This document shows positions 3,806 to 39,805 of a stretch of DNA of 46,617 bases, piece by piece. Source of the stretch: a virus (Duplodnaviria > Heunggongvirae > Uroviricota > Caudoviricetes); IMG/VR virus record IMGVR_UViG_2541047681_000006; one strand, 5' to 3'. Both the position numbers and the translations under genes were made by a program. Under the pieces are notes generated by a model. The model saw nothing but the letters and a program-made list of their open reading frames with translations, made no database searches and was not told where the DNA came from. Numbering within the stretch: the stretch's first letter is position 1; the number at the start of each line of letters is the position of its first letter.

Positions 3806-4570
3806 TCAATCTCCATTGGTATCAATGTTTACAGCCTGACAAGACTCTTTGAGCACCCAGTCAATAGCGTCTTTCCATGCCTCTGTTTCGACTGGTGGAT
3901 TTTCACGCTTAACCTGTTCATAGAAGCGCACTGCTTTAACCAGTCCTTCCGGTACTACTGGTGATGGCTGTTTAGCTTCTAAATCAGCAATTCTGTCAAC
4001 CACGGCATCGACAGCATCTGAAAAGCCGAACCAGTTGCTCCACTCCGGCTCATCCCCGGTTGCTGCAAAGTACATATCTGCTAAAGCAGATTCAGCATGG
4101 TCACGCTCGTTAATGAGTTGCTCTTCGCTTTTCTCCAGTTCAGCAATACGCTTACCCCCATCCGAGATAACACCTTCGTAATACTCACGCTGCTCGTTGA
4201 GTTTTGATTTTGTCTCCTCAAGCTCAACTCTCAGCTTCCCAACAGTAAGAGCAATATCCTCGTTCTCCTGGTCGCGGCGTTTTATGTATTGCTGGTTTCT
4301 TTCCCGTTCATCCAGCAGTGCCAGCACAGTAGCCGGATTGGCTGCGGCGATGAATTCAGCATTGGCCTGCTGTTCCATTTGGAAATCTTCATCGAAACCG
4401 CTTTCTGGATGCGCTCCTTCAATTCTGCAAATGGGAATATATCCAGCAACTTCACGATGAATTAGCGCATAATCACCATCAAATCGGCTCTCTCCATATT
4501 CGAGCGACCACTCACCACACGTTGCTTTTTCTGCCGCTTCACGCAGTGCCTGATAGTTAATTTCGCTCAC
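3806..4570 (-). CDS. Ea22-like protein (coiled-coil)
   Basis: 254-aa ORF; acidic coiled-coil central region (ELEETKSKLNEQREYYEG, IAELEKSEEQLINERD) typical of the ead/Ea22-like family of lambdoid early-left regions. Confidence 0.55.
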   Translation of the reverse strand: MSEINYQALREAAEKATCGEWSLEYGESRFDGDYALIHREVAGYIPICRIEGAHPESGFDEDFQMEQQANAEFIAAANPATVLALLDERERNQQYIKRRDQENEDIALTVGKLRVELEETKSKLNEQREYYEGVISDGGKRIAELEKSEEQLINERDHAESALADMYFAATGDEPEWSNWFGFSDAVDAVVDRIADLEAKQPSPVVPEGLVKAVRFYEQVKRENPPVETEAWKDAIDWVLKESCQAVNIDTNGD

Positions 4571-9273: not shown

Positions 9274-9546
9274 TCATCTCGCCGTCAGTTGTTTTGATTT
9301 CCGGTAGCCTGCCGCGTAAAGAGCTACGTTCGGAAGACAAGTTGAACCTTCATATTTTCTGGTCAACGTTGTCAGAGTTATCACTTCTGCTCTCATTGCT
9401 GGTTTGAGCTTGCATTGCAAGACCACTCGTGAAGGGGTTGGCCTGTGTAGCTTGTCGGAGCTGATCGCCTCCTGACTTTGCAGATTTGCGCGACGAGCTC
9501 TACGGCGAGAAGCTGCGGTGCCTTTAAATTCTGTTTTTCTGGACAT
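9274..9546 (-). CDS. N: N-like transcription antitermination protein
   Basis: First gene downstream of nutL on the leftward operon; start set at ATG 9546 (MSRKTEFKGTAASRRRARRANLQ) giving an N-terminal arginine-rich motif like lambda N (TRRRERRAEKQ); rest of protein is not lambda N. Confidence 0.6.
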   Translation of the reverse strand: MSRKTEFKGTAASRRRARRANLQSQEAISSDKLHRPTPSRVVLQCKLKPAMRAEVITLTTLTRKYEGSTCLPNVALYAAGYRKSKQLTAR

Positions 9547-9689: not shown

Positions 9690-9739
9690 CTGCCAGTCTG
9701 TTCCATTTGGCTTCCAGCGTCCTGCTGACGGTTAAATAG

Positions 9740-9790
9740 TACGATATGTACTTTACAAGATCAATACAATTTGTTGTAAGTTGGCGTGGT
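9740..9790 (-). promoter_or_regulatory. putative oL/pL operator-promoter region
   Basis: Contains ATATGTACTTTACAAG and AATACAAT elements that recur, inverted, in the cI-cro intergenic region. Confidence 0.35.
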
Positions 9791-9949
9791 TTTTTATAAC
9801 GCTTTGTATTTAATAGTGTTGTTTTTTAGCGTGGATGTATTGCCTCGGCGATGTAAGGAGAGATCAGAATTGCGTGGTTTAGTGGGTTGCATCTATTTAT
9901 TTTTCAATAAATATAATTGGTTATGTGTTTTTAGGTGGGCAAACGTGAG

Positions 9950-9980
9950 GCAAAGAAAACCCGGCGCTGAGGCCGGGTTG
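9950..9980 (-). terminator. intrinsic terminator downstream of the cI-moron operon
   Basis: Minus strand: CCCGGC-CTCAGC-GCCGGG stem-loop followed by TTTTCTTTG, directly after the stop at 9983. Confidence 0.55.
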
Positions 9981-9982
9981 TA

Positions 9983-10735
9983 TTATGCTGCAAGTCTCTT
10001 AACCCAAGTCTCTCTTTTGGAGAATGGTAGAACTTGGCTTGATTCATGGAAGAGTAAGGAGAGTTGTTGCATTTGATCACCAATTGCTTCGCTGTCTATA
10101 ACAACAAATCTGTTGTTATACTCCTCACTTGAAGCTTTAAGATCAATTAGTTTCCCAAGCAATGAGTAAGCACTATTCCAGCTTCCTCCGTGTTTCACGC
10201 TTGATGTAAAAACGTATTTAGGTATGTCGGTTTTTATTGTTACAGGGACGGTAATTTGATGTCCACTCAAGCCATATACGTTTTCACGAAGAGAAAGTGC
10301 GTCTCTAAGCTCTGTGTGATATAGATAATCAATAACCATACTTTCAAACTTTTCAGCTTGAACTGGCTGATACCAGTCTAACGACAAAGTTGATGCGAGT
10401 ATACCAGCTCTAATTATGTTCGATGTAATCGCACCGACATCCTTTTCTGTTGCCCAAGCAATGATTTCTCCTCGAGCATTGAGTTCTGCGCCTTCTTTAA
10501 GCAGTAATTGTCGTATCTCATCAAGTCGTTTTTTGGTAAGCGAGATCCCTCTTGCCTCCATATTCATTAAGGCATCGCATCTGTCACTAACTAAATACCT
10601 ACCATTGACTTCACGGATAAAGGCACCGACATGCTCTCCATCATCACAGTAAGTGAATGGACTGATAATTCTCAAGGTCTTGCCTATTGGATGGCATTCG
10701 AAACCTAGTTGTGAGATCACTGTTGAGCACATCAT
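9983..10735 (-). CDS. hypothetical protein (distal gene of the rex-position operon)
   Basis: 250-aa ORF; start ATG overlaps the upstream stop (ATGA at 10732-10735); AT-rich; no family recognised. Confidence 0.6.
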   Translation of the reverse strand: MMCSTVISQLGFECHPIGKTLRIISPFTYCDDGEHVGAFIREVNGRYLVSDRCDALMNMEARGISLTKKRLDEIRQLLLKEGAELNARGEIIAWATEKDVGAITSNIIRAGILASTLSLDWYQPVQAEKFESMVIDYLYHTELRDALSLRENVYGLSGHQITVPVTIKTDIPKYVFTSSVKHGGSWNSAYSLLGKLIDLKASSEEYNNRFVVIDSEAIGDQMQQLSLLFHESSQVLPFSKRETWVKRLAA

Positions 10736-11289
10736 ATTCCAAACCCCATTTGCCCCGACTCATCTTCAAGCGGTAAAGGTATTCTCCCAGAGTAAGTTAT
10801 GTTCAGATGTTTACAGAAGTAATTCCAATACCCTACCAGGTCATCTGGGTTTATGTCATCTTCGATTGGAAACGCTATTCTATCACTATAGTATCCAGCT
10901 TCTTCATAGTATACATGGTAGTGAGCACCGTAAATGATATCTTGGTACTTCGGATGATCGACCTTGTAACTATTCGTGTGTTTGTCAAAGTGATAGGTAT
11001 CTACCGCGAAAACCCTCTTGTTATGATAGAAAGCAATAATATTTATTTTAGGGTAAGAAATCGGGTCATCAGGTTCTGAATCCTGATCTGGTTTCCATTT
11101 CAGTTCAAACTTTAGCCCTTGTATAGGTATACAATCCTCATCCAAGGGGATGATATGGGCTTGTAGCCACATATCAGAGCGACTTGGTTTCTGTTTCCAT
11201 TTAACGCCAGAAAAGTTAACTATTTTTTTACAATAAAGTATTGTATCAACTTCTACTTGGCTTGGCTGATAATCATCTATTTTTGCCAA
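10732..11289 (-). CDS. hypothetical protein (proximal gene of the rex-position operon)
   Basis: 185-aa ORF 40 nt downstream of cI on the same strand; acidic, Tyr/His-rich (YHVYYEEAGYY); AT-rich; no family recognised. Confidence 0.6.
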   Translation of the reverse strand: MAKIDDYQPSQVEVDTILYCKKIVNFSGVKWKQKPSRSDMWLQAHIIPLDEDCIPIQGLKFELKWKPDQDSEPDDPISYPKINIIAFYHNKRVFAVDTYHFDKHTNSYKVDHPKYQDIIYGAHYHVYYEEAGYYSDRIAFPIEDDINPDDLVGYWNYFCKHLNITYSGRIPLPLEDESGQMGFGI

Positions 11290-11328
11290 TGTTTACCGCC
11301 CTGTAAATTGTAGATAAAAGTGGTTTCA

Positions 11329-11988
11329 TCACCCAAACGTCTCTTCAGGCCATTGGCTGGCGATAACTTTCCCCACAACGGAACAACTCTCATTGCATGG
11401 GATCATTGGGTATTGTGGGTTTAGTGGCTGTAGAAACACCTGACCGCTATCCCTGATCAGTTTCTTGAAGGTAAATTCATCACCACCAAGTCTGGCTATG
11501 CAGAAATCGCCGGGCTCAACAGCTTGCTCAGGGTCAACCAGAATTAACATCCCGTCAGGAAAGCTGGGTTTGGAACCTGTTGGTGCGGTCATTGAGTTAC
11601 CTTCAACCTCAAGCCAGAATGCAGAGTCACTGGCTTTTTTGGTTGTGCTTACCAATCTCTCCGCATCGCCTTTGGTAAAGGTTCTGAGTTCTGGAGAGAA
11701 CATCCCAGCCTGAACATGAGAAAAAACAGGGTACTCATATTGTTTTTTAACTGGGGCCGATGAGTATTCGCCAACAGGTGAAAATGTCCCGTCGTGGTTG
11801 AATGATATGTTATCAATACCAAGGTATTTAAACACCACACCAATATCACTAAGAGATGGATGACGAGATCCGCGCAACCAGTGTCCAATCCCACCCTGCG
11901 TCATACCTAGCTCTTCGGCTAACTTCTCTTGAGTTATGCCGAGCTCTTTCATTCTGGATCTAGCCAGTTCATACCATTTCATTTTCAT
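11329..11988 (-). CDS. cI: CI-type prophage repressor (hybrid: novel N-terminal HTH, lambda-type S24 C-terminal domain)
   Basis: C-terminal ~140 aa match lambda CI ([21 protein letters not shown]...[14 protein letters not shown]) including the Ser/Lys autocleavage domain; N-terminal HTH domain is different; start set at ATG 11988 (MKMKWY), preceded by AAGGA. Confidence 0.85.
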
Positions 11989-12030
11989 GTCCTTATTATT
12001 ACGCTCTGTACTGGAACCATCCATGCACAA

Positions 12031-12099
12031 TGTGTATTTTTACTTGTATTCGCAAAGTACATATTGTATTTTTTTATTCGTGTTTACTATGGAGGGCAT
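12031..12099. promoter_or_regulatory. oR / pR / pRM divergent control region
   Basis: About 110-bp gap between divergent cI and cro starts; AAAGTACATAT and TTGTATT elements shared with the putative oL region. Confidence 0.4.
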
Positions 12100-12315
12100 A
12101 TGAGCAACCTACGAAAATATCGAGAGTCACTGAATATCTCTCAAACAACACTTGCTAAGGCAGTTGGATGCACACAGGGAGCTATCGGACATTGGGAATC
12201 TGGTCGTCGCTTCCCAGACCTTAAAACATGCCGTGCTCTTGTTGCGTGCCTAAACAAGTTAGGCGCAAAAGTCAGTCTTGATGACGTGTTCCCGCCGGAA
12301 CACAAAGCCGCTTAA
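12100..12315 (+). CDS. cro: Cro-like HTH repressor
   Basis: 71-aa product from ATG 12100 (MSNLRKYRESLNISQTTLAKAVGCTQGAIGHWESGRR...) with GGAGGG RBS; HTH motif; divergent from cI; not lambda Cro. Confidence 0.8.
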   Translation: MSNLRKYRESLNISQTTLAKAVGCTQGAIGHWESGRRFPDLKTCRALVACLNKLGAKVSLDDVFPPEHKAA

Positions 12316-12325
12316 TAAGCGGATC

Positions 12326-12371
12326 CGCTCTTTGTAACAACGGACATTCGTCCTACGTCGCTGAAAAGCGA
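12326..12371 (+). promoter_or_regulatory. nutR (boxA + boxB)
   Basis: CGCTCTTTGTAACAA (boxA-like, 12326-12340) followed by hairpin TCGCT-GAAA-AGCGA (12358-12371), just downstream of cro. Confidence 0.55.
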
Positions 12372-12456
12372 GTTCCAAGATATCTGACCAACTAAGGCCA
12401 TATGCGTTTCCACGCATACCTTTCAACTAACTATTCACTATTGGAAATCTTAAGAA

Positions 12457-12753
12457 ATGGAAAGAACAAGTTACAGCAAACTATCACAGCGTGACGTTGA
12501 TCGCGCAGAAACAGATTTACTTATCAATCTGTCAGCTATTACCCAGCGCGGTCTGGCAAAGATGATTGGCTGTCATGAATCGAAGATAAGCAGAACGGAC
12601 TGGAGATTTATTGCTTCGGTCTTGTGTGCTTTCGGAATGGCATCAGACATCAGTCCGATTAGCAGGGCTTTTAAGTATGCGCTTGATGGACTCACCAATA
12701 AAAAACGCCCGGCGGCAACCGAGCGTTCTGAACAAATCCAGATGGAATTCTGA
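12457..12753 (+). CDS. cII: CII-type transcriptional activator
   Basis: 98-aa ORF; C-terminus identical to lambda CII (LTNKKRPAATERSEQIQMEF); N-terminal part divergent. Confidence 0.85.
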   Translation: MERTSYSKLSQRDVDRAETDLLINLSAITQRGLAKMIGCHESKISRTDWRFIASVLCAFGMASDISPISRAFKYALDGLTNKKRPAATERSEQIQMEF

Positions 12754-12785
12754 GGTCATTACTGGATCAATCCACAGGAGTCATT

Positions 12786-13685
12786 ATGACAAATACAGCA
12801 AAAATACTCAACTTCTGCAGAGGTAACTTTGCCAAACAGGAGCGTAATGTGGCAGATCTCGATGATGGTTACGCCAGACTATCAAATATGCTGCTTGAGG
12901 CTTATTCAGGCGCAGATCTGACCAAGCGACAGTTTAAAGTGCTGCTTGCCATTCTGCGTAAAACCTATGGATGGAATAAACCAATGGACAGAATCACCGA
13001 TTCTCAACTTAGCGAGATTACAAAGTTACCCGTCAAACGGTGCAATGAAGCCAAGTTAGAACTCGTCAGAATGAATATTATCAAGCAGCAAGGCGGCATG
13101 TTTGGACCAAATAAAAACATCTCAGAATGGTGTATCCCTCAAAACGAGGGAAAATCCCCTAAAACGAGGGATAAAACATCCCTCAAATTGGGGGATTGCT
13201 ATCCCTCAAAACAGGGGGACACAAAAGACACTATTACAAAAGAAAAAAGAAAAGATTATTCGTCAGAGAATTCTGGCGAATCCTCTGACCAGCCAGAAAA
13301 CGACCTTTCTGTGGTGAAACCGGATGCTGCAATTCAGAGCGGCAGCAAGTGGGGGACAGCAGAAGACCTGACCGCCGCAGAATGGATGTTTGACATGGTG
13401 AAGACCATCGCGCCATCAGCCAGAAAACCGAATTTTGCAGGGTGGGCTAACGATATCCGCCTGATGCGTGAACGTGACGGACGTAACCATCGCGACATGT
13501 GTGTACTGTTCCGCTGGGCATGCCAGGACAACTTCTGGTCCGGTAACGTGCTGAGCCCGGCCAAACTCCGCGACAAGTGGACCCAGCTCGAAATCAACCG
13601 TAACAAGCAACAGGCAGGTGTGACAGCCTGCAAACCAAAACTCGACCTGACAAACACTGACTGGATTTACGGGGTGGATTTATGA
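12786..13685 (+). CDS. O: replication initiator O
   Basis: 299-aa ORF matching lambda O (MTNTAKILNF...); contains the ori iterons internally. Confidence 0.95.
   Translation: MTNTAKILNFCRGNFAKQERNVADLDDGYARLSNMLLEAYSGADLTKRQFKVLLAILRKTYGWNKPMDRITDSQLSEITKLPVKRCNEAKLELVRMNIIKQQGGMFGPNKNISEWCIPQNEGKSPKTRDKTSLKLGDCYPSKQGDTKDTITKEKRKDYSSENSGESSDQPENDLSVVKPDAAIQSGSKWGTAEDLTAAEWMFDMVKTIAPSARKPNFAGWANDIRLMRERDGRNHRDMCVLFRWACQDNFWSGNVLSPAKLRDKWTQLEINRNKQQAGVTACKPKLDLTNTDWIYGVDL
13133..13260 (+). repeat. ori-lambda iterons plus AT-rich region
   Basis: Four about 18-bp direct repeats of the form ATCCCTCAAAACGAGGGA between 13134 and 13219, followed by an A-rich stretch, inside the O gene. Confidence 0.8.
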
Positions 13686-34064: not shown

Positions 34065-34639
34065 TGTCGCACTGAAGGGTGCGGCCAGTATAGTTGGCGC
34101 GAGTCGGCAAAACTAGTTGACGTCTAATAACGCTGGCGTGGATGCCCGGAGAGCAGGGGCAGCAGGCGCTGCTGGCGTGGTTTAATGAAGGTGATACCCG
34201 TGCCTATAAAATCCGCTTCCCGAACGGCACGGTCGATGTGTTCCGTGGCTGGGTCAGCAGTATCGGTAAGGCGGTGACGGCGAAGGAAGTGATCACCCGT
34301 ACGGTGAAGGTCACCAATGTGGGCCGTCCGTCAATGGCAGAAGATCGCAGTACGGTGACGGCGGCAACCGGTATGACCGTGACGCCTGCCAGCTCCTCGG
34401 TGGTGAAAGGGCAGAGCACCACGCTGACCGTGGCCTTCCAGCCGGAGGGCGCAACTGACAAGAGCTTCCGTGCGGTGTCAGCGGATAAAACAAAAGCCAC
34501 CGTGTCGGTCAGTGGTATGACCATCACCGTGAACGGCGTTGCTGCAGGCAAGGTCAACATTCCGGTTGTATCCGGTAATGGTGAACTTGCTGCGGTTGCA
34601 GAAATCACTGTCACCGACAGTTAATCCGGAGAGTCAGCG

Positions 34640-35062
34640 ATGTTCCTGAAAACCGAATCATTTGAACATAACGGCGTGACCGTCACGCTTTCTGAACTGT
34701 CAGCCCTGCAGCGTATTGAGCATCTCGCCCTGATGAAACAGCAGGCAGAACAGGCGGAGTCAGACAGCAACCGGCAGGTTACTGTGGAAGACGCCATCAG
34801 AACCGGTGCTTTTGTGGTGGCGATGTCCCTGTGGCATAACCATCCGCAGAAGACAAAGCAGCCTTCCATGAATGAAGCCGTTAAACAGATTGAGCAGGAA
34901 GTGCTTACCACCTGGCCCGCGGAGGCAATTTCTCATGCTGAAAACGTGGTGTACCGGCTGTCCGGTATGTATGGGTTTGTGGTGAATGATGCCCCTGACC
35001 AGGCAGAGGACTCCGGGCCTGCAGAGCCTGTTTCTGCGGGAAAGTGTTCGACGGTGAGCTGA
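34640..35062 (+). CDS. G: tail assembly chaperone gpG
   Basis: 140-aa ORF matching lambda G; slippery heptamer GGGAAAG near its 3' end. Confidence 0.9.
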   Translation: MFLKTESFEHNGVTVTLSELSALQRIEHLALMKQQAEQAESDSNRQVTVEDAIRTGAFVVAMSLWHNHPQKTKQPSMNEAVKQIEQEVLTTWPAEAISHAENVVYRLSGMYGFVVNDAPDQAEDSGPAEPVSAGKCSTVS

Positions 35063-35478
35063 GTTTTGCCCTGAAACTGGCGCGAGAGATGGGGCGACCT
35101 GACTGGCGCGCCATGCTTGCCGGGATGTCATCCACGGAGTATGCCGACTGGCACCGCTTTTACAGTACCCATTATTTTCATGATGTTCTGCTGGATATGC
35201 ACTTTTCCGGGCTGACGTACACTGTGCTCAGCCTGTTTTTCAGCGATCCGGATATGCATCCGCTGGATTTCAGTTTGCTGAACCGGCGTGAGGATGACGA
35301 AGAGCCTGAAGATGATGTGCTGATGCAGAAAGCGGCAGGGCTTACCGGAGGCGTCCGCTTTGACCCGGACGGAAATGAAGTTATCCCCGCTTCCCCGGAT
35401 ATGGCGGGCATGACGGAGGATGACGTAATGCTGATGACAGTATCAGAAGGGATCGCAGGAGGAGTCCGGTATGGCTGA
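34640..35478 (+). CDS. GT: tail assembly chaperone gpG-T (programmed -1 frameshift product)
   Basis: Slippery site GGGAAAG at 35038-35044; the -1 frame continues as VFDGELSFALKLAREMGRPDW... (lambda gpT) to 35478. Confidence 0.75.
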
Positions 35479-38032
35479 ACCGGTAGGCGATCTGGTCGTT
35501 GATTTAAGTCTGGATGCGGCCAGATTTGACGAGCAGATGGCCAGAGTCAGGCGTCATTTTTCCGGTACGGAAAGTGATGCGAAAAAAACAGCGGCAGTCG
35601 TTGAACAGTCGCTGAGCCGACAGGCGCTGGCTGCACAGAAAGCGGGGATTTCCGTCGGGCAGTATAAAGCCGCCATGCGTATGCTGCCTGCACAGTTCAC
35701 CGACGTGGCCACGCAGCTTGCAGGCGGGCAAAGCCCGTGGCTGATCCTGCTGCAACAGGGTGGTCAGGTTAAGGACTCCTTCGGCGGGATGATCCCCATG
35801 TTCCGGGGGCTTGCCGGTGCGATCACCCTGCCGATGGTCGGGGCCACCTCGCTGGCGGTGGCGACCGGTGCGCTGGCGTATGCCTGGTATCAGGGTAACT
35901 CAACCCTGTCCGATTTCAACAAAACGCTGGTCCTTTCCGGCAATCAGTCGGGTCTGACGGCAGATCGTATGCTGGTCCTGTCCAGAGCCGGGCAGGCGGC
36001 AGGGCTGACGTTTAACCAGACCAGCGAGTCACTCAGCGCACTGGTTAAGGCGGGAGTAAGCGGTGAGGCTCAGATTGCATCCATCAGCCAGAGTGTGGCG
36101 CGTTTCTCCTCTGCATCCGGCGTGGAGGTGGACAAGGTCGCTGAAGCCTTCGGGAAGCTGACCACTGACCCGACGTCGGGGCTGACGGCGATGGCGCGCC
36201 AGTTCCATAACGTAACGGCGGAGCAGATTGCGTATGTTGCTCAGTTGCAGCGTTCCGGCGATGAATCCGGGGCATTGCAGGCGGCGAACGAGGCCGCAAC
36301 GAAAGGGTTTGATGACCAGACCCGACGCCTGAAAGAGAACATGGGCACGCTGGAAACCTGGGCAGACAGGACAGCACGGGCATTCAAATCCATGTGGGAT
36401 GCGGTGCTGGATATTGGTCGTCCTGATACCGCTCAGGAGATGCTGATTAAGGCAGAGGCTGCGTTTAAGAAAGCGGACGACATCTGGAATCTGCGCAAGG
36501 ATGATTATTTTGTTAACGATGAAGCGCGGGCGCGTTACTGGGATGATCGTGAAAAGGCCCGTCTTGCGCTTGAAGCCGCCCGAAAGAAGGCTGAACAGCA
36601 GAGTCAACAGGACAAAAATGCGCAGCAGCAGAGCGATACCGAAGCATCACGGCTGAAATATACCGAAGAGGCGCAGAAGGCTTACGAACGGCTGCAGACA
36701 CCGCTGGAGAAATATACCGCCCGTCAGGAAGAACTGAACAAGGCACTGAAAGACGGGAAAATCCTGCAGGCAGATTACAACACGCTGATGGCGGCGGCGA
36801 AAAAGGATTATGAAGCGACGCTGAAAAAGCCGAAACAGTCCGGCGTGAAGGTGTCTGCGGGCGATCGTCAGGAAGACAGTGCTCATGCTGCCCTGCTGAC
36901 GCTTCAGGCTGAACTCCGGACGCTGGAGAAGCATGCCGGAGCAAATGAGAAAATCAGCCAGCAGCGCCGGGATTTGTGGAAGGCGGAGAGTCAGTTCGCG
37001 GTACTGGAGGAGGCGGCGCAACGTCGCCAGCTGTCTGCACAGGAGAAATCCCTGCTGGCGCATAAAGATGAGACGCTGGAGTACAAACGCCAGCTGGCTG
37101 CACTTGGCGACAAGGTTACGTATCAGGAGCGCCTGAACGCGCTGGCGCAGCAGGCGGATAAATTCGCACAGCAGCAACGGGCAAAACGGGCCGCTATTGA
37201 TGCGAAAAGCCGGGGGCTGACTGACCGGCAGGCAGAACGGGAAGCCACGGAACAGCGCCTGAAGGAACAGTATGGCGATAATCCTCTGGCGCTGAATAAC
37301 GTCATGTCAGAGCAGAAAAAGACCTGGGCGGCTGAAGACCTGCTTCGCGGGAACTGGATGGCAGGCCTGAAGTCCGGCTGGAGTGAGTGGGAAGAGAGTG
37401 CCACGGACAGTATGTCGCAGGTTAAAAGTGCTGCCACGCAGACCTTTGATGGTATTGCGCAGAATATGGCGGCGATGCTGACCGGCAGTGAACAGAACTG
37501 GCGCAGCTTCACCCGTTCCGTGCTGTCCATGATGACAGAAATTCTGCTTAAGCAGGCAATGGTGGGGATTGTCGGGAGTATCGGCAGCGCTATTGGCGGG
37601 GCTGTTGGTGGCGGCGCATCCGCGTCAGGCGGTACAGCCATTCAGGCCGCTGCGGCGAAACTCCATTTTGCAACCGGAGGATTTACGGGAACCGGCGGCA
37701 AATATGAGCCAGCGGGGATTGTTCACCGTGGTGAATTTGTCTTCACGAAGGAGGCAACCAGCCGGATTGGCGTGGGAAATCTCTACCGGCTGATGCGCGG
37801 CTATGCCACCGGCGGTTATGTCGGTGGCACCGGAAGTCCGGCGCAAATGCGGCGTTCAGAGGGTATCAGGTTTGAGCAGAACAACAACGTGGTGATTCAG
37901 AACGACGGTACGAATGGTCTGCCAGGTCCACAGATGATGAAGGCGGTGTATGACATGGCCCGCAAGGGTGCCCGTGATGAAATCCAGGCACAGATGCGCG
38001 ATGGTGGTCTGTTCTCCGGAGGTGGACGATGA
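35471..38032 (+). CDS. H: tail tape measure protein gpH
   Basis: 853-aa ORF, same length as and colinear with lambda H. Confidence 0.95.
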   Translation: MAEPVGDLVVDLSLDAARFDEQMARVRRHFSGTESDAKKTAAVVEQSLSRQALAAQKAGISVGQYKAAMRMLPAQFTDVATQLAGGQSPWLILLQQGGQVKDSFGGMIPMFRGLAGAITLPMVGATSLAVATGALAYAWYQGNSTLSDFNKTLVLSGNQSGLTADRMLVLSRAGQAAGLTFNQTSESLSALVKAGVSGEAQIASISQSVARFSSASGVEVDKVAEAFGKLTTDPTSGLTAMARQFHNVTAEQIAYVAQLQRSGDESGALQAANEAATKGFDDQTRRLKENMGTLETWADRTARAFKSMWDAVLDIGRPDTAQEMLIKAEAAFKKADDIWNLRKDDYFVNDEARARYWDDREKARLALEAARKKAEQQSQQDKNAQQQSDTEASRLKYTEEAQKAYERLQTPLEKYTARQEELNKALKDGKILQADYNTLMAAAKKDYEATLKKPKQSGVKVSAGDRQEDSAHAALLTLQAELRTLEKHAGANEKISQQRRDLWKAESQFAVLEEAAQRRQLSAQEKSLLAHKDETLEYKRQLAALGDKVTYQERLNALAQQADKFAQQQRAKRAAIDAKSRGLTDRQAEREATEQRLKEQYGDNPLALNNVMSEQKKTWAAEDLLRGNWMAGLKSGWSEWEESATDSMSQVKSAATQTFDGIAQNMAAMLTGSEQNWRSFTRSVLSMMTEILLKQAMVGIVGSIGSAIGGAVGGGASASGGTAIQAAAAKLHFATGGFTGTGGKYEPAGIVHRGEFVFTKEATSRIGVGNLYRLMRGYATGGYVGGTGSPAQMRRSEGIRFEQNNNVVIQNDGTNGLPGPQMMKAVYDMARKGARDEIQAQMRDGGLFSGGGR

Positions 38033-38358
38033 AAACCTTCCGCTGGAAAGTGAAACCCGGGATGGATGTGACATCGGCTCCTTCCGTCAGGGAGGTGCGC
38101 TTTGGTGATGGCTATTCCCAGCGTGCGCCTGCCGGGCTGAACGCTGACCTGAAAACGTACAGCGTGACGCTGTCTGTCTCCCGTGAGGAGGCCACGGCGC
38201 TGGAGTCGTTTCTGGCTGAGCACGGGGGCTGGAAGGCCTTTCTGTGGACGCCGCCTTATGGTTACAGGCAGATAAAGGTGACCTGCGCAAAATGGTCGTC
38301 GCGGGTCAGTATGCTGCGTGTTGAGTTCAGCGCAGAGTTTGAACAGGTGGTGAACTGA
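38029..38358 (+). CDS. M: minor tail protein gpM
   Basis: 109-aa ORF matching lambda M. Confidence 0.9.
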   Translation: MKTFRWKVKPGMDVTSAPSVREVRFGDGYSQRAPAGLNADLKTYSVTLSVSREEATALESFLAEHGGWKAFLWTPPYGYRQIKVTCAKWSSRVSMLRVEFSAEFEQVVN

Positions 38359-39056
38359 TGCAGGATATCCGGCAGGAAACATTGAATGAATGCACCCGTG
38401 CGGAGCAGTCGGCCAGCGTGGTGCTCTGGGAAATCGATCTGACAGAGGTCGGTGGAGAACGTTATTTTTTCTGTAATGAGCAGAACGAAAAAGGTGAGCC
38501 GGTCACCTGGCAGGGGCGACAGTATCAGCCGTATCCCATTCAGGGGAGTAGTTTTGAACTGAATGGCAAAGGCACCAGTACGCGCCCCACGCTGACGGTT
38601 TCTAACCTGTACGGTATGGTCACCGGGATGGTGGAAGATCTGCAGAGTCTGGTCGGCGGAACGGTGGTCAGGCGTAAGGTTTACGCCCGTTTTCTGGATG
38701 CGGTGAACTTCGTCAACGGAAACAGCGACGCCGATCCGGAGCAGGAGGTGATCAGCCGCTGGCGCATCGAGCAGTGCAGCGAACTGAGTGCGGTCAGTGC
38801 CTCCTTTGTACTGTCCACACCGACGGAAACGGATGGTGCCGTTTTTCCGGGGCGCATCATGCTGGCTAATACCTGCACCTGGACCTATCGCGGTGATGAG
38901 TGCGGTTATCACGGTCCGGCGGTCGCGGATGAATATGATCAGCCGACTTCCGATATCACGAAGGATAAATGCAGCAAATGCCTGAGCGGCTGTAAGTTTC
39001 GCAATAACGTCGGCAACTTTGGCGGCTTCCTTTCCATTAACAAACTTTCGCAGTAA
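38358..39056 (+). CDS. L: minor tail protein gpL
   Basis: 232-aa ORF matching lambda L (C-terminal Cys cluster). Confidence 0.9.
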   Translation: MQDIRQETLNECTRAEQSASVVLWEIDLTEVGGERYFFCNEQNEKGEPVTWQGRQYQPYPIQGSSFELNGKGTSTRPTLTVSNLYGMVTGMVEDLQSLVGGTVVRRKVYARFLDAVNFVNGNSDADPEQEVISRWRIEQCSELSAVSASFVLSTPTETDGAVFPGRIMLANTCTWTYRGDECGYHGPAVADEYDQPTSDITKDKCSKCLSGCKFRNNVGNFGGFLSINKLSQ

Positions 39057-39061
39057 ATCCC

Positions 39062-39805
39062 ATGACAGAGACAGAATCAGCGATTCTGGCGCATGCCCGG
39101 CGATGTGCGCCAGCGGAGTCGTGCGGCTTCGTGGTGAGAGCGCCGGAGGGGGAAAGATATTTTCCCTGCGTGAATATCTCCGGTGAGCCGGAGGCGTATT
39201 TCCGGATGGCTCCGGAGGACTGGCTGCAGGCAGAGATGCAGGGTGAGATTGTGGCGCTGGTCCACAGTCATCCCGGTGGTCTGCCCTGGCTGAGTGAGGC
39301 CGACCGGCGGCTGCAGGTGCAGAGTGATTTGCCGTGGTGGCTGGTCTGCCGGGGGGCGATTCATAAGTTCCGCTGTGTGCCGCATCTCACCGGGCGGCGC
39401 TTTGAGCACGGGGTGACGGACTGTTACACGCTGTTCCGGGACGCTTACCATCTGGCGGGGATTGAGATGCCGGACTTTCATCGTGAGGATGACTGGTGGC
39501 GTAACGGCCAGAATCTCTATCTTGATAATCTGGAGGCCACAGGGCTGTATCAGGTGCCGTTGTCAGCGGCGCAGCCGGGCGATGTGCTGCTGTGCTGCTT
39601 TGGTTCATCGGTGCCGAATCATGCCGCTATTTACTGTGGTGACGGCGAGCTGCTGCACCATATTCCTGAACAACTGAGTAAACGAGAGAGGTATACCGAC
39701 AAATGGCAGCGACGCACACACTCCCTCTGGCGTCACCGGGCATGGCGCGCATCTGCCTTTACGGGGATTTACAACGATTTGGCCGCCGCATCGACCTTCG
39801 TGTGA
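39062..39805 (+). CDS. K: tail assembly protein gpK (JAB/MPN + NlpC/P60-like)
   Basis: ORF matching lambda K (HSHPGG metalloprotease-like motif; Cys/His peptidase motifs); overlaps the start of I. Confidence 0.85.
   Translation: MTETESAILAHARRCAPAESCGFVVRAPEGERYFPCVNISGEPEAYFRMAPEDWLQAEMQGEIVALVHSHPGGLPWLSEADRRLQVQSDLPWWLVCRGAIHKFRCVPHLTGRRFEHGVTDCYTLFRDAYHLAGIEMPDFHREDDWWRNGQNLYLDNLEATGLYQVPLSAAQPGDVLLCCFGSSVPNHAAIYCGDGELLHHIPEQLSKRERYTDKWQRRTHSLWRHRAWRASAFTGIYNDLAAASTFV

Follow-up and report, generated by a model that had tools for sequence, protein, structure and literature searches.

A probable lambdoid immunity region of the VT2-Sakai type joins a phage-L-type DNA-binding module to a lambda-type repressor C-terminal domain

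Which immunity does a phage carry when its repressor resembles lambda CI at one end but not at the other? A 987-bp region (11329–12315) of a 46,617-nucleotide stretch of Caudoviricetes DNA, here called the window and analysed at full length, raises this question. We propose, with a probability of about 0.9, that it serves as the genetic switch, or immunity region, of a lambdoid prophage whose immunity is of the VT2-Sakai / Stx1-converting-phage / Nil2 type. The sequence relationships, the junction within the repressor gene, the operator motif statistics and the identity with described phages are direct observations. The hybrid region is already known and documented in Stx phages; it is an ordinary mosaic, annotated in Shiga-toxin phages around 1999–2003.

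We find the 987-bp region to be 98.6–100% identical to its counterparts in AP005153, AP005154, VT2-Sakai, Nil2, the PA phages and ev017/ev207, with complete identity in ev017, ev207 and PhiR57_1. By tblastn, the N-terminal domain of CI is 98.8–100% identical to those of VT2-Sakai-type relatives. The record of the Stx1-converting phage AP005153 annotates six operators together with promoters, and the VT2-Sakai record describes cI as 'similar to CI repressor of bacteriophage lambda' and cro as 'similar to C2 of bacteriophage L'. The same operator sequences were used as VT2-SA oligonucleotides in electrophoretic mobility shift assays (EMSA; Table S1 of PMC10742460). The epsilon34 genome paper describes repressors with a lambda-like C-terminal part and an N-terminal part related to L/VT2-Sa/Nil2, and gives the operator consensus WTACRAWWTGTAT (PMC2629481). 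Of 5426 complete E. coli genomes, 776 (14%, about 1 in 7) carry the module, Nissle 1917 and the type strain of the species among them.

Defective prophages may account for many of these 776 carrier genomes, and in Nissle 1917 the module sits in a prophage described as non-inducible (PMC5987069), as would suit a decayed cryptic-prophage remnant whose hybrid gene has no current regulatory role. We consider this very improbable: cI, cro, cII, N and all six operators are intact, the C-terminal block of cI has a dN/dS of 0.008, and identical regions are present in phage-genome records such as PhiR57_1, ev017, ev207 and the VT2-Sakai-type Stx phages. A 'phage repressor (pr)' of Nissle 1917 protects K-12 against lambda and Stx phages (PMC5987069); we rejected its identification with the hybrid CI because its primers map to cII (12411–12780), and the paper thus carries no information on CI.

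The lambda-type part of the repressor is sharply delimited. The cI gene (11329–11988, minus strand; alternative ATG at 11982) encodes 219 residues with Pfam HTH_3 and Peptidase_S24 matches, and residues 84–219, numbered from the ATG at 11988, are identical to lambda CI at 135 of 136 positions, the sole substitution being Trp to Leu. The preliminary description, which had the C-terminal ~140 residues closely matching lambda CI, was correct on this point. This portion (11329–11739, minus strand) comprises the last ~30 linker residues, with Ala94-Gly95, and the S24 C-terminal domain, with the Ser132/Lys175 dyad (Peptidase_S24, PF00717; Pfam E 1.1e-28, full-length match). In the DNA, the lambda-like sequence forms a 412-bp block (11328–11739) with 93.4% nucleotide identity to lambda 37226–37637 and abrupt edges. 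Homology halts at the cI stop codon and at codon 84, where identity drops from ~93% to background within ~10 nt, 10 codons upstream of the Ala-Gly self-cleavage site. Against lambda, the dS of 0.37 and dN/dS of 0.008 show a block that is strongly constrained and functional. Residues A94-G95, S132 and K175 (A111-G112, S149 and K192 in the conventional lambda numbering) are invariant in an alignment of CI with the lambda, L/ST64T and SPN9CC repressors. From the 135/136 identity we infer that CI would undergo RecA-stimulated autocleavage upon SOS induction.

The remainder of the gene (11740–11988, minus strand; residues 1–83) encodes the helix-turn-helix (HTH) domain and the first part of the linker, and is of phage-L type by its identity to L/ST64T-family repressors. 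The N-terminal domain is ~21% identical to that of lambda across 81 aligned residues, as the earlier view of a differing ~90-residue HTH domain had it, and no nucleotide homology to lambda was found in cI past 11739. The same description had called the DNA-binding domain non-lambda, which is right for specificity type and wrong for fold: the HTH_3 class is common to both repressors. The domain matches Pfam HTH_3 (E 1.9e-10) and, weakly, the lambda repressor N-terminal domain (PDB 1LLI, E 2.7e-4), and is, as judged from these matches, a distant lambda homologue of the HTH_3 / lambda-repressor-like class that differs in specificity type but not in fold. Its recognition helix, TQGGIGHW, is unlike lambda GQSGVGAL and agrees with that of phage L.

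Cro follows the same pattern. The cro gene (12100–12315, plus strand), preceded by the Shine-Dalgarno sequence GGAGG at 12091–12095, encodes a 71-residue HTH_3 protein (Pfam E 4.2e-12) that Pfam places in HTH_3, not in the Cro family. BLASTP against lambda Cro returned no alignment at E <= 100, in agreement with the initial claim of a non-lambda product. Cro is 69% identical to phage L/ST64T Cro, and P22 C2 N-terminal domain structures match it weakly. With 35% identity to its own repressor's N-terminal domain (E 7e-11) and a TQGxIGHW recognition-helix motif common to both, Cro is a paralogue of that domain.

Because identity to lambda collapses at codon 84, cI has the form of a mosaic joined in the linker. 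Comparison with relatives points the same way. N-terminal identity to the window is uniformly 47–52% in the L/ST64T, SPN9CC, Erwinia, Vibrio and Klebsiella phages, and C-terminal identity is 47% in L/ST64T, 80% in SPN9CC, 40% in Erwinia, 44% in Vibrio and 45% in Klebsiella phages. Since these identities are incongruent across relatives, the two halves of CI differ in history, and the repressor gene is a recombinant whose junction lies inside the inter-domain linker. The N-terminal domain, operators and cro are a pre-existing phage-L-type specificity module, and the lambda-like part is the oligomerisation/cleavage domain; across 11878–12003 the window is 71% identical to ST64T at the DNA level. 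The initial reading of a recombinant immunity specificity built by domain swap is thus upheld for the mosaic gene, through the junction and the incongruence, and withdrawn for the specificity, which is not new. Lambda-like and non-lambda segments alternate across 9737–13600, so either parent may have been the recipient of the swap.

Diversifying selection is expected to act on immunity determinants. A lambda-like cI might on this ground have descended vertically, its N-terminal domain, operators and cro diverging fast and its C-terminal domain being conserved, and the still detectable distant homology of the N-terminal domain to lambda (1LLI, E 2.7e-4) is compatible with such a history. The junction and the incongruence effectively refute it, and we regard it as most unlikely. 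Identity steps from ~93% to background in ~10 nt, and with a dS of just 0.37 in the C-terminal block, the neighbouring N-terminal DNA could not have been randomised by point mutation. The N-terminal and cro DNA is instead 68–71% identical to L/ST64T, the domain identities among relatives are incongruent, and the Cro proteins of the window and of lambda are of different families.

Returning to the recombinant repressor, we assessed the partner C-terminal domains by tblastn against a phage collection; a word-indexed protein search queried with just the N-terminal domain returned only fragments and near-identical sequences. At C-terminal identity of at least 95%, two N-terminal types only were seen. 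Phages ev099 and ev243, considered as carriers of a third N-terminal type on a near-identical lambda C-terminal domain, were rejected as lambda-immunity phages (237-residue CI, 66-residue Cro). A further candidate, vB_EcoP-720R6 (217-residue CI, 71-residue Cro), was taken as a VT2-Sa-type variant by these lengths alone.

The specificity module extends to the operators. From the AP005153 annotation together with motif and position weight matrix (PWM) analysis, we recognise six operators of 17 bp, three in each of oL and oR, all sharing the core TAC(A/G)N3TGTA. At oR, oR3 (TATTACGCTCTGTACTG, 11997–12013) matches a putative AP005153 operator exactly and scores 14.8 bits. Annotation and PWM place oR2 (ATGCACAATGTGTATTT, 12023–12039) next to the putative pRM -35 (12018–12023, minus strand), and the annotated oR1 (AAGTACATATTGTATTT, 12055–12071), with the top score of 20.6 bits, overlaps the putative pR -10 (12067–12072). 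The putative pR -35 is at 12044–12049 and the putative pRM -10 at 11995–12000. At oL, all three sites are marked by both annotation and PWM: oL1 (TAGTACGATATGTACTT, 9737–9753) overlaps the putative pL -10 (9736–9741, minus strand), oL2 (CAATACAATTTGTTGTA, 9762–9778) overlaps the putative pL -35 (9759–9764, minus strand), and oL3 (TATAACGCTTTGTATTT, 9795–9811) completes the set. Both oL2 and oL3 are 1 nt off the AP005153/VT2-Sakai sites, the other four operators being exact. Measured between centres, neighbouring sites are 32 and 26 bp apart at oR, and 25 and 33 bp apart at oL.

The six operators far exceed chance expectation: they score 14.8–20.6 bits, against a best non-operator score of 11.7 in 46.6 kb, and 7 of the 17 occurrences of ACRNNNTGTA in the whole window (6 sites) fall inside the two 75-bp operator regions. 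The positions given for pR, pL and pRM are weak 8/12-type hexamer matches, located by analogy and with the help of the AP005153 annotation; a sigma-70 consensus scan at a 9/12 threshold did not report them. Generic repeat finding on oR and oL failed to separate the operators, yielding no more than partial inverted and direct repeats.

Two elements had earlier been singled out as shared by oL and oR in inverted orientation. Both are found on opposite strands, ATATGTACTTT at 9744–9754 (plus) and 12054–12064 (minus), with 0.00 copies expected by chance, and AATACAAT at 9763–9770 (plus) and 12063–12070 (minus). They are fragments of the 17-bp operators, overlapping in oR1 and split between oL1 and oL2, but the 8-mer AATACAAT taken alone is within chance (1.6 expected). 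A third copy of ATATGTACTTT (4067–4077) was rejected as an operator, being only a half-site within an open reading frame. The boundaries first given need revision: oR is 11997–12071 and not 12031–12099, a span that leaves out oR3 and half of oR2 and takes in the cro leader. For oL, the span 9740–9790 does contain oL operators, and its proper extent is 9737–9811.

Correct placement of oR bears on the start of cI. Relatives in GenBank put the start at 12024, and the open reading frame ends at 12030 with a TTG; both positions lie upstream of oR3, and neither is retained here. Repressors of relatives begin at an equivalent M-K/N-x-W directly past the third operator, and the cI start is most likely the ATG at 11988 (219 residues) or at 11982. 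The start at 12024 in several GenBank cI annotations is probably too far upstream. From the putative pRM -10 (11995–12000), we infer a transcript start near 11988, and the cI mRNA is probably leaderless.

Lambda operators are absent at oR and oL, where the lambda half-site TATCACCGC is matched at 6/9 positions at best, each operator agreeing with any lambda operator at no more than 9 of 17 positions. That the divergent N-terminal domain nonetheless reads lambda-type operators, leaving the phage homoimmune with lambda, is scarcely credible: lambda CI does shift VT2-SA operator oligonucleotides at micromolar concentrations, but with apparent Kd values 10–25 times weaker than at lambda oR1/oL1 (3.7–6.4 uM against 0.21–0.35 uM; PMC10742460), and the TQGGIGHW helix matches that of phage L in place of lambda GQSGVGAL.

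We propose a switch that would operate on lambda principles with phage-L specificity. A repressor dimer would bind, through its phage-L-type HTH, the six two-fold-symmetric 17-bp operators with core TAC(A/G)-N3-TGTA, three overlapping pR/pRM and three pL, and thereby switch off the early lytic operons. The lambda C-terminal part would provide lambda-type dimerisation and dimer-dimer cooperativity, as well as self-cleavage between Ala94 and Gly95, stimulated by RecA and carried out by the Ser132/Lys175 dyad, and the SOS response would induce the prophage as it does lambda. Cro presumably occupies these operators too and favours lytic growth, as in 434, P22 and L. Binding, cooperativity, cleavage and promoter positions are modelled on the biology of lambda, 434 and L; a search of the accessible literature turned up no experiments on how this very repressor binds DNA, cooperates or is cleaved, and the mechanism accordingly rests on homology.

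The region matters little as a discovery, and its practical value lies in immunity-group assignment, start-codon correction and a measure of constraint. It is a textbook case of how lambdoid phages evolve as mosaics of modules: with the joint in the flexible linker, DNA specificity is inherited apart from the oligomerisation and induction machinery, and dN/dS 0.008 at dS 0.37 quantifies how tightly the C-terminal domain is held. We can place the window phage in the VT2-Sakai immunity group, which also controls the Stx1 and Stx2 prophages of O157:H7. Given that role and how common the group is (14% of complete E. coli genomes), it is plausible that commensal prophages and incoming Stx phages show cross-immunity.

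More speculatively, the C-terminal dimerisation and cooperativity domain is 99% identical to that of lambda CI and the DNA-binding domains are heterospecific, and CI subunits could for this reason mix with lambda-immunity subunits in polylysogens, or dimers could make contact across the operators of two phages. A mixed dimer, its two heads differing in specificity, would bind neither operator set well. Through either effect, two formally heteroimmune prophages would be linked in their stability and induction thresholds. Alternatively, because the L-type N-terminal family keeps one core in Escherichia, Salmonella, Erwinia, Klebsiella and Vibrio phages, partial cross-recognition may exist between immunities counted as different. 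We regard such coupling or cross-recognition as doubtful.

Among the closest known systems are VT2-Sakai (Sp5), AP005153, Stx2 phage II AP005154 and Nil2, which are 98.6% identical to the window in cI-oR-cro DNA and have the same six operators apart from the single-nucleotide differences in oL2 and oL3. N and the flanks are just 93% identical. Between cI and oL, the window carries a two-gene DUF6978-like/DUF1828 cassette (9983–11289), whereas the Stx phages have a single 522-bp open reading frame (b63/orf22); literature on PDC-M24 or DUF1828 in phage defence was sought and none was found.

Lambda has the same switch layout: cI and cro diverge, oL and oR each hold three 17-bp operators, and in the window a putative pRM -35 adjoins oR2. 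The CI cleavage site and Ser/Lys dyad are also common to both. The window differs in lacking the longer N-terminus of lambda CI (its repressor is ~18 residues shorter in total), in operators of the form TAC(A/G)N3TGTA, unrelated to the TATCACCGC half-sites, in operator spacing (25–33 bp against 20–24 bp; 23–24 bp at lambda oR), in the replacement of rexAB and in a Cro from another family. Lambda's N-terminal domain, operators and Cro, by which imm-lambda is defined, are all absent.

Salmonella phage L/ST64T has an N-terminal domain 47–55% identical to that of the window, the common TQGxIGHW motif and three oR sites with the same core at spacings of 26 and 34 bp, but its C-terminal domain is 47% identical and not of lambda type. 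More widely, the cI-cro spacers of the ST64T, SPN9CC, Erwinia, Vibrio and Klebsiella relatives have the same core in a similar layout, with spacings of ~26 and ~32–34 bp. SPN9CC and g341c, together with epsilon34 (PMC2629481), have the same architecture, an L-type N-terminal domain (52%) on a lambda-like C-terminal domain, and similar operators; in SPN9CC/g341c, however, the C-terminal domain shares 80% identity with that of lambda, against 99% for the window, and Cro is 46% identical. As in 434, P22 and L-style switches, Cro in the window is paralogous to the repressor N-terminal domain. Laboratory hybrid repressors, in which a 434 or P22 N-terminal domain was joined to the lambda C-terminal domain, served to map cooperativity determinants. 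The window repressor has the same design, one phage's DNA specificity with lambda oligomerisation and cooperativity, but is natural and widespread.

We identify a CI repressor whose two halves resemble lambda CI to very different degrees. Window and lambda CI share 151 of 212 residues across the whole BLASTP alignment, mostly in one unbroken run to the C-terminus (135/136, the sole change being Trp to Leu), whereas the N-terminal 83 residues are ~21% identical, which bears out the preliminary description of a lambda-like C-terminal part behind a differing N-terminal domain. Measured along the codons, identity to lambda cI is at background up to codon 84 (counting from the ATG at 11988) and 83–100% from there to the stop; the switch takes ~10 nt, and the homology has its second end directly past the stop codon. 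The joint falls between the two domains, in the linker, 10 codons ahead of the Ala94-Gly95 cleavage site, so the lambda-type block holds that site, the catalytic Ser132 and Lys175, and the entire oligomerisation domain. The 27 nucleotide differences between this block and lambda include 1 non-synonymous change (dS 0.37, dN 0.003, dN/dS 0.008). The block is therefore no very recent transfer from lambda itself, and purifying selection on the C-terminal domain is very strong. With a single amino-acid change over 136 codons at this dS, 11329-11739 is unusually constrained for a phage gene.

The N-terminal half has its own set of relatives. By tblastn, its 83 residues are 98.8–100% identical in VT2-Sakai, the Stx1-converting phage, Stx2 phages, Nil2, and PA phages, and 96.4% in vB_EcoP-683R2; the next tier, at 45–60%, comprises the Salmonella P22-like phages ST64T (which carries the phage L repressor), SPN9CC, and g341c, together with Erwinia, Vibrio, Klebsiella, and Pseudomonas phages. 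We computed identity to the window domain by domain for six phages. N-terminal, C-terminal, and Cro values, in that order, are 21%, 99%, and 30% for lambda; 47%, 47%, and 69% for L/ST64T; 52%, 80%, and 46% for SPN9CC; 52%, 40%, and 48% for Erwinia Midgardsormr38; 48%, 44%, and 32% for Vibrio H2; and 48%, 45%, and 34% for Klebsiella P18-100. The CI N-terminal half is thus about equidistant from all members of the L family, whereas the C-terminal half varies from 40 to 99%. DNA identity is 68–71% to ST64T in the N-terminal and cro parts and 74% to SPN9CC in the C-terminal part. Coupled with the step-like junction, these discordant identities show that cI is a recombinant and not a product of unequal divergence, in agreement with the domain swap proposed earlier. 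Among phage records, C-terminal domains at least 95% identical to the window's occur with two N-terminal types only, lambda's and the window's.

Mosaicism extends beyond cI. Blastn against lambda 34500-39500 returns lambda-like islands at 11328-11739 (93.4% to lambda 37226-37637), 9858-9979 (89% to lambda DNA just downstream of rexB, with a terminator-like hairpin at 9958-9979), and 12691-13600 (98%, the 3' end of cII and O). Since lambda-like and non-lambda segments are interleaved in this way across 9737-13600, the recipient parent could have been either lambda-like or L-type. The cII gene is also mosaic: lambda identity starts abruptly at 12691 (98%, lambda 38591) and runs on into O, so the non-lambda immunity module spans 11740-12690, with a joint inside a gene at either end: the cI linker on one side and the C-terminal region of cII on the other.

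The operators belong with the N-terminal half. Six putative 17-bp operators, as well as pR, pRM, and pL hexamers, are annotated in GenBank entry AP005153, that of the Stx1-converting phage, in DNA 98.6% identical to the window. Mapped to the window, the putative operators are oL1 (9737-9753, TAGTACGATATGTACTT), oL2 (9762-9778, CAATACAATTTGTTGTA), oL3 (9795-9811, TATAACGCTTTGTATTT), oR3 (11997-12013, TATTACGCTCTGTACTG), oR2 (12023-12039, ATGCACAATGTGTATTT), and oR1 (12055-12071, AAGTACATATTGTATTT); four of the six are exact, and oL2 and oL3 are each one base off. Their in-register consensus is two-fold symmetric, NNN-TAC(A/G)-NNN-TGTA-NNN. With a symmetric PWM built from the six sites, these score 14.8–20.6 bits, against 11.7 for the best other site in the 46.6-kb window and 6.5 at the 99.9th percentile. 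Of 17 copies of the core ACRNNNTGTA in the window (8.2 expected), 7 (six sites) are within the two 75-bp operator regions. None of the six resembles a lambda operator, each matching at ≤9/17 positions with a best lambda half-site match of 6/9.

The preliminary description had noticed two DNA elements common to oR and oL; both are present, and each is part of an operator. ATATGTACTTT lies at 9744-9754 (+) and 12054-12064 (-), with a chance expectation of 0.00 copies, and AATACAAT at 9763-9770 (+) and 12063-12070 (-), an 8-mer that alone is not above chance. Both fall inside oR1 at oR and are split between oL1 and oL2 at oL. The oR interval proposed with them, 12031-12099, stops short of oR3 and takes in only half of oR2. 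A third exact copy of ATATGTACTTT, at 4067-4077 (minus strand) within ORF 3806-4570, is probably fortuitous because only a single operator half-site is found there (AAGTACATATCTGCTAA).

Centre-to-centre spacing is 32 bp for oR1-oR2, 26 bp for oR2-oR3, 25 bp for oL1-oL2, and 33 bp for oL2-oL3, compared with 23–24 bp at oR and 20–24 bp at oL in lambda. Phage L, with a C-terminal domain of an unrelated subtype, has matching spacings, which therefore belong to the L-type module. The cI-cro spacers of the relatives each contain two or three TAC(A/G)N3(T/C)GTA sites, spaced ~26 and ~32–34 bp where three were found. Sites in the ST64T, SPN9CC, Midgardsormr38, H2, and P18-100 spacers score 8.7–18.1 bits with the window PWM, although the N-terminal domains are 47–52% identical. 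Half-site recognition thus seems to have been kept across five genera in the L-type family, which raises the question of what determines immunity specificity. The shared operator core and spacing mark the N-terminal domain, operators, and cro as an old module that is widely distributed, the lambda-like part being the effector domain only.

Putative promoters fit the AP005153 annotation: pR on the plus strand (-35 12044-12049; -10 12067-12072, overlapping oR1), and, on the minus strand, pL (-35 9759-9764, overlapping oL2; -10 9736-9741, overlapping oL1) and pRM (-35 12018-12023, abutting oR2; -10 11995-12000, overlapping oR3). All three have weakly matching hexamers and were absent from generic promoter scan output. 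The position of pRM predicts a transcript start near the A of ATG 11988, similar to lambda, whose cI message is leaderless. The cI start at 12024 given in PV340572, AP005153, and other records, like the TTG at 12030 that opens the longest ORF, lies upstream of oR3 and the putative pRM -10 and would place both elements within coding sequence. Annotated starts in relatives are the equivalent M-K/N-x-W directly after the third operator (in phage L/ST64T, an aligned internal Met). We therefore favor, as an inference, a cI of 11329-11988 (219 aa) or 11329-11982. Across the family, the start is conserved as a pair of ATG codons (ATGAAAATGAAATGG, 11988 and 11982) with AGGA ahead of it, right after the third operator; the SPN9CC, Erwinia, and Vibrio relatives have this pair too. 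The first ATG could serve a leaderless pRM transcript and the second a transcript led by a Shine-Dalgarno sequence.

The surrounding layout is that of a standard lambdoid early-control region: N (9274-9546, minus; Pfam N_peptide), oL/pL, two minus-strand genes, cI (11329 to ~11988, minus; HTH_3 and Peptidase_S24), oR, cro (12100-12315, plus; HTH_3), cII (12457-12753; Phage_CII), O, and P. The two-gene cassette (9983-11289) sits exactly at the lambda rexA-rexB place, downstream of cI and followed by the hairpin in the 89% island, with ORFs at 10732-11289 (185 aa) and 9983-10735 (250 aa). Its proteins weakly match both components of the PADLOC candidate defence system PDC-M24 (M24A, E 4.5e-4; M24B, E 4.7e-10), as well as Pfam DUF6978 (below cut-off) and DUF1828. 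The cassette occurs in 7 phage records only, Stx phages of the same immunity having a different single ORF there, and we found no papers linking PDC-M24 or DUF1828 to phage defence; it probably represents an uncharacterised anti-phage module expressed from the prophage. EcN_1294, the 'phage repressor (pr)' of E. coli Nissle 1917, reportedly protected K-12 ~200-fold from lambda and Stx phages (PMC5987069). The published primers map to 12411-12780, the cII homologue rather than cI, so CII over-expression more likely explains this protection than repressor immunity.

The immunity region (11329-12315) is an already known, very common type and a standard case of lambdoid mosaicism. Its 987 bp are identical, at equal coordinates, in Escherichia phage PhiR57_1, and identical also in ev017, ev207, and PhiR63_2; of 5426 complete E. 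coli genomes, 776 carry the N-terminal/oR/cro DNA (11740-12315), Nissle 1917 and the type strain ATCC 11775 among them. As early as 1999, the VT2-Sakai entry carried the notes 'similar to CI repressor of bacteriophage lambda' for cI and 'similar to C2 of bacteriophage L' for cro. The epsilon34 genome paper (PMC2629481) reports repressors that pair a C-terminal domain like that of lambda and HK97 with an N-terminal domain akin to those of L, VT2-Sa, and Nil2, and gives WTACRAWWTGTAT as the operator consensus. OR1-3 and OL1-3 of Sakai-type Stx2a phages appear in Yin et al. 2015 (PMC4587872), with reference to Fattah et al. 2000, and these CI proteins fall with lambda CI in 'Clade I' of Llarena et al. 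2022 (PMC8951638). In EMSA, lambda CI bound the exact same operator sequences with an apparent Kd of 3.7–6.4 uM, versus 0.21–0.35 uM for lambda oR1/oL1 (PMC10742460). Heteroimmune repressors with one common oligomerisation domain may show functional cross-talk, or there may be cross-recognition within the L-type N-terminal family.

By homology, we propose that CI would dimerise and bind cooperatively through its lambda-type C-terminal domain, block pR and pL from oR1/oR2 and oL1/oL2, touch RNA polymerase at pRM from oR2, and be inactivated through RecA-stimulated self-cleavage. Cro gave no BLASTP alignment to lambda Cro at all and aligns instead with the window's own CI N-terminal domain (35% identity, E 7e-11), upholding its earlier assignment as non-lambda. 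A structure for this Cro family appears to exist, as PDB 28tn chain A, a 'lambda repressor-like protein' (82 aa), closely matches Cro residues 1-69 (E 4.5e-17). As a paralogue sharing the motif TQG(G/A)IGHW with the CI N-terminal domain at the recognition-helix position, Cro is predicted to act on the same sites as CI. Phages 434, P22, and L are arranged in this way, with a Cro that is a repressor paralogue using the repressor's sites; lambda is not.
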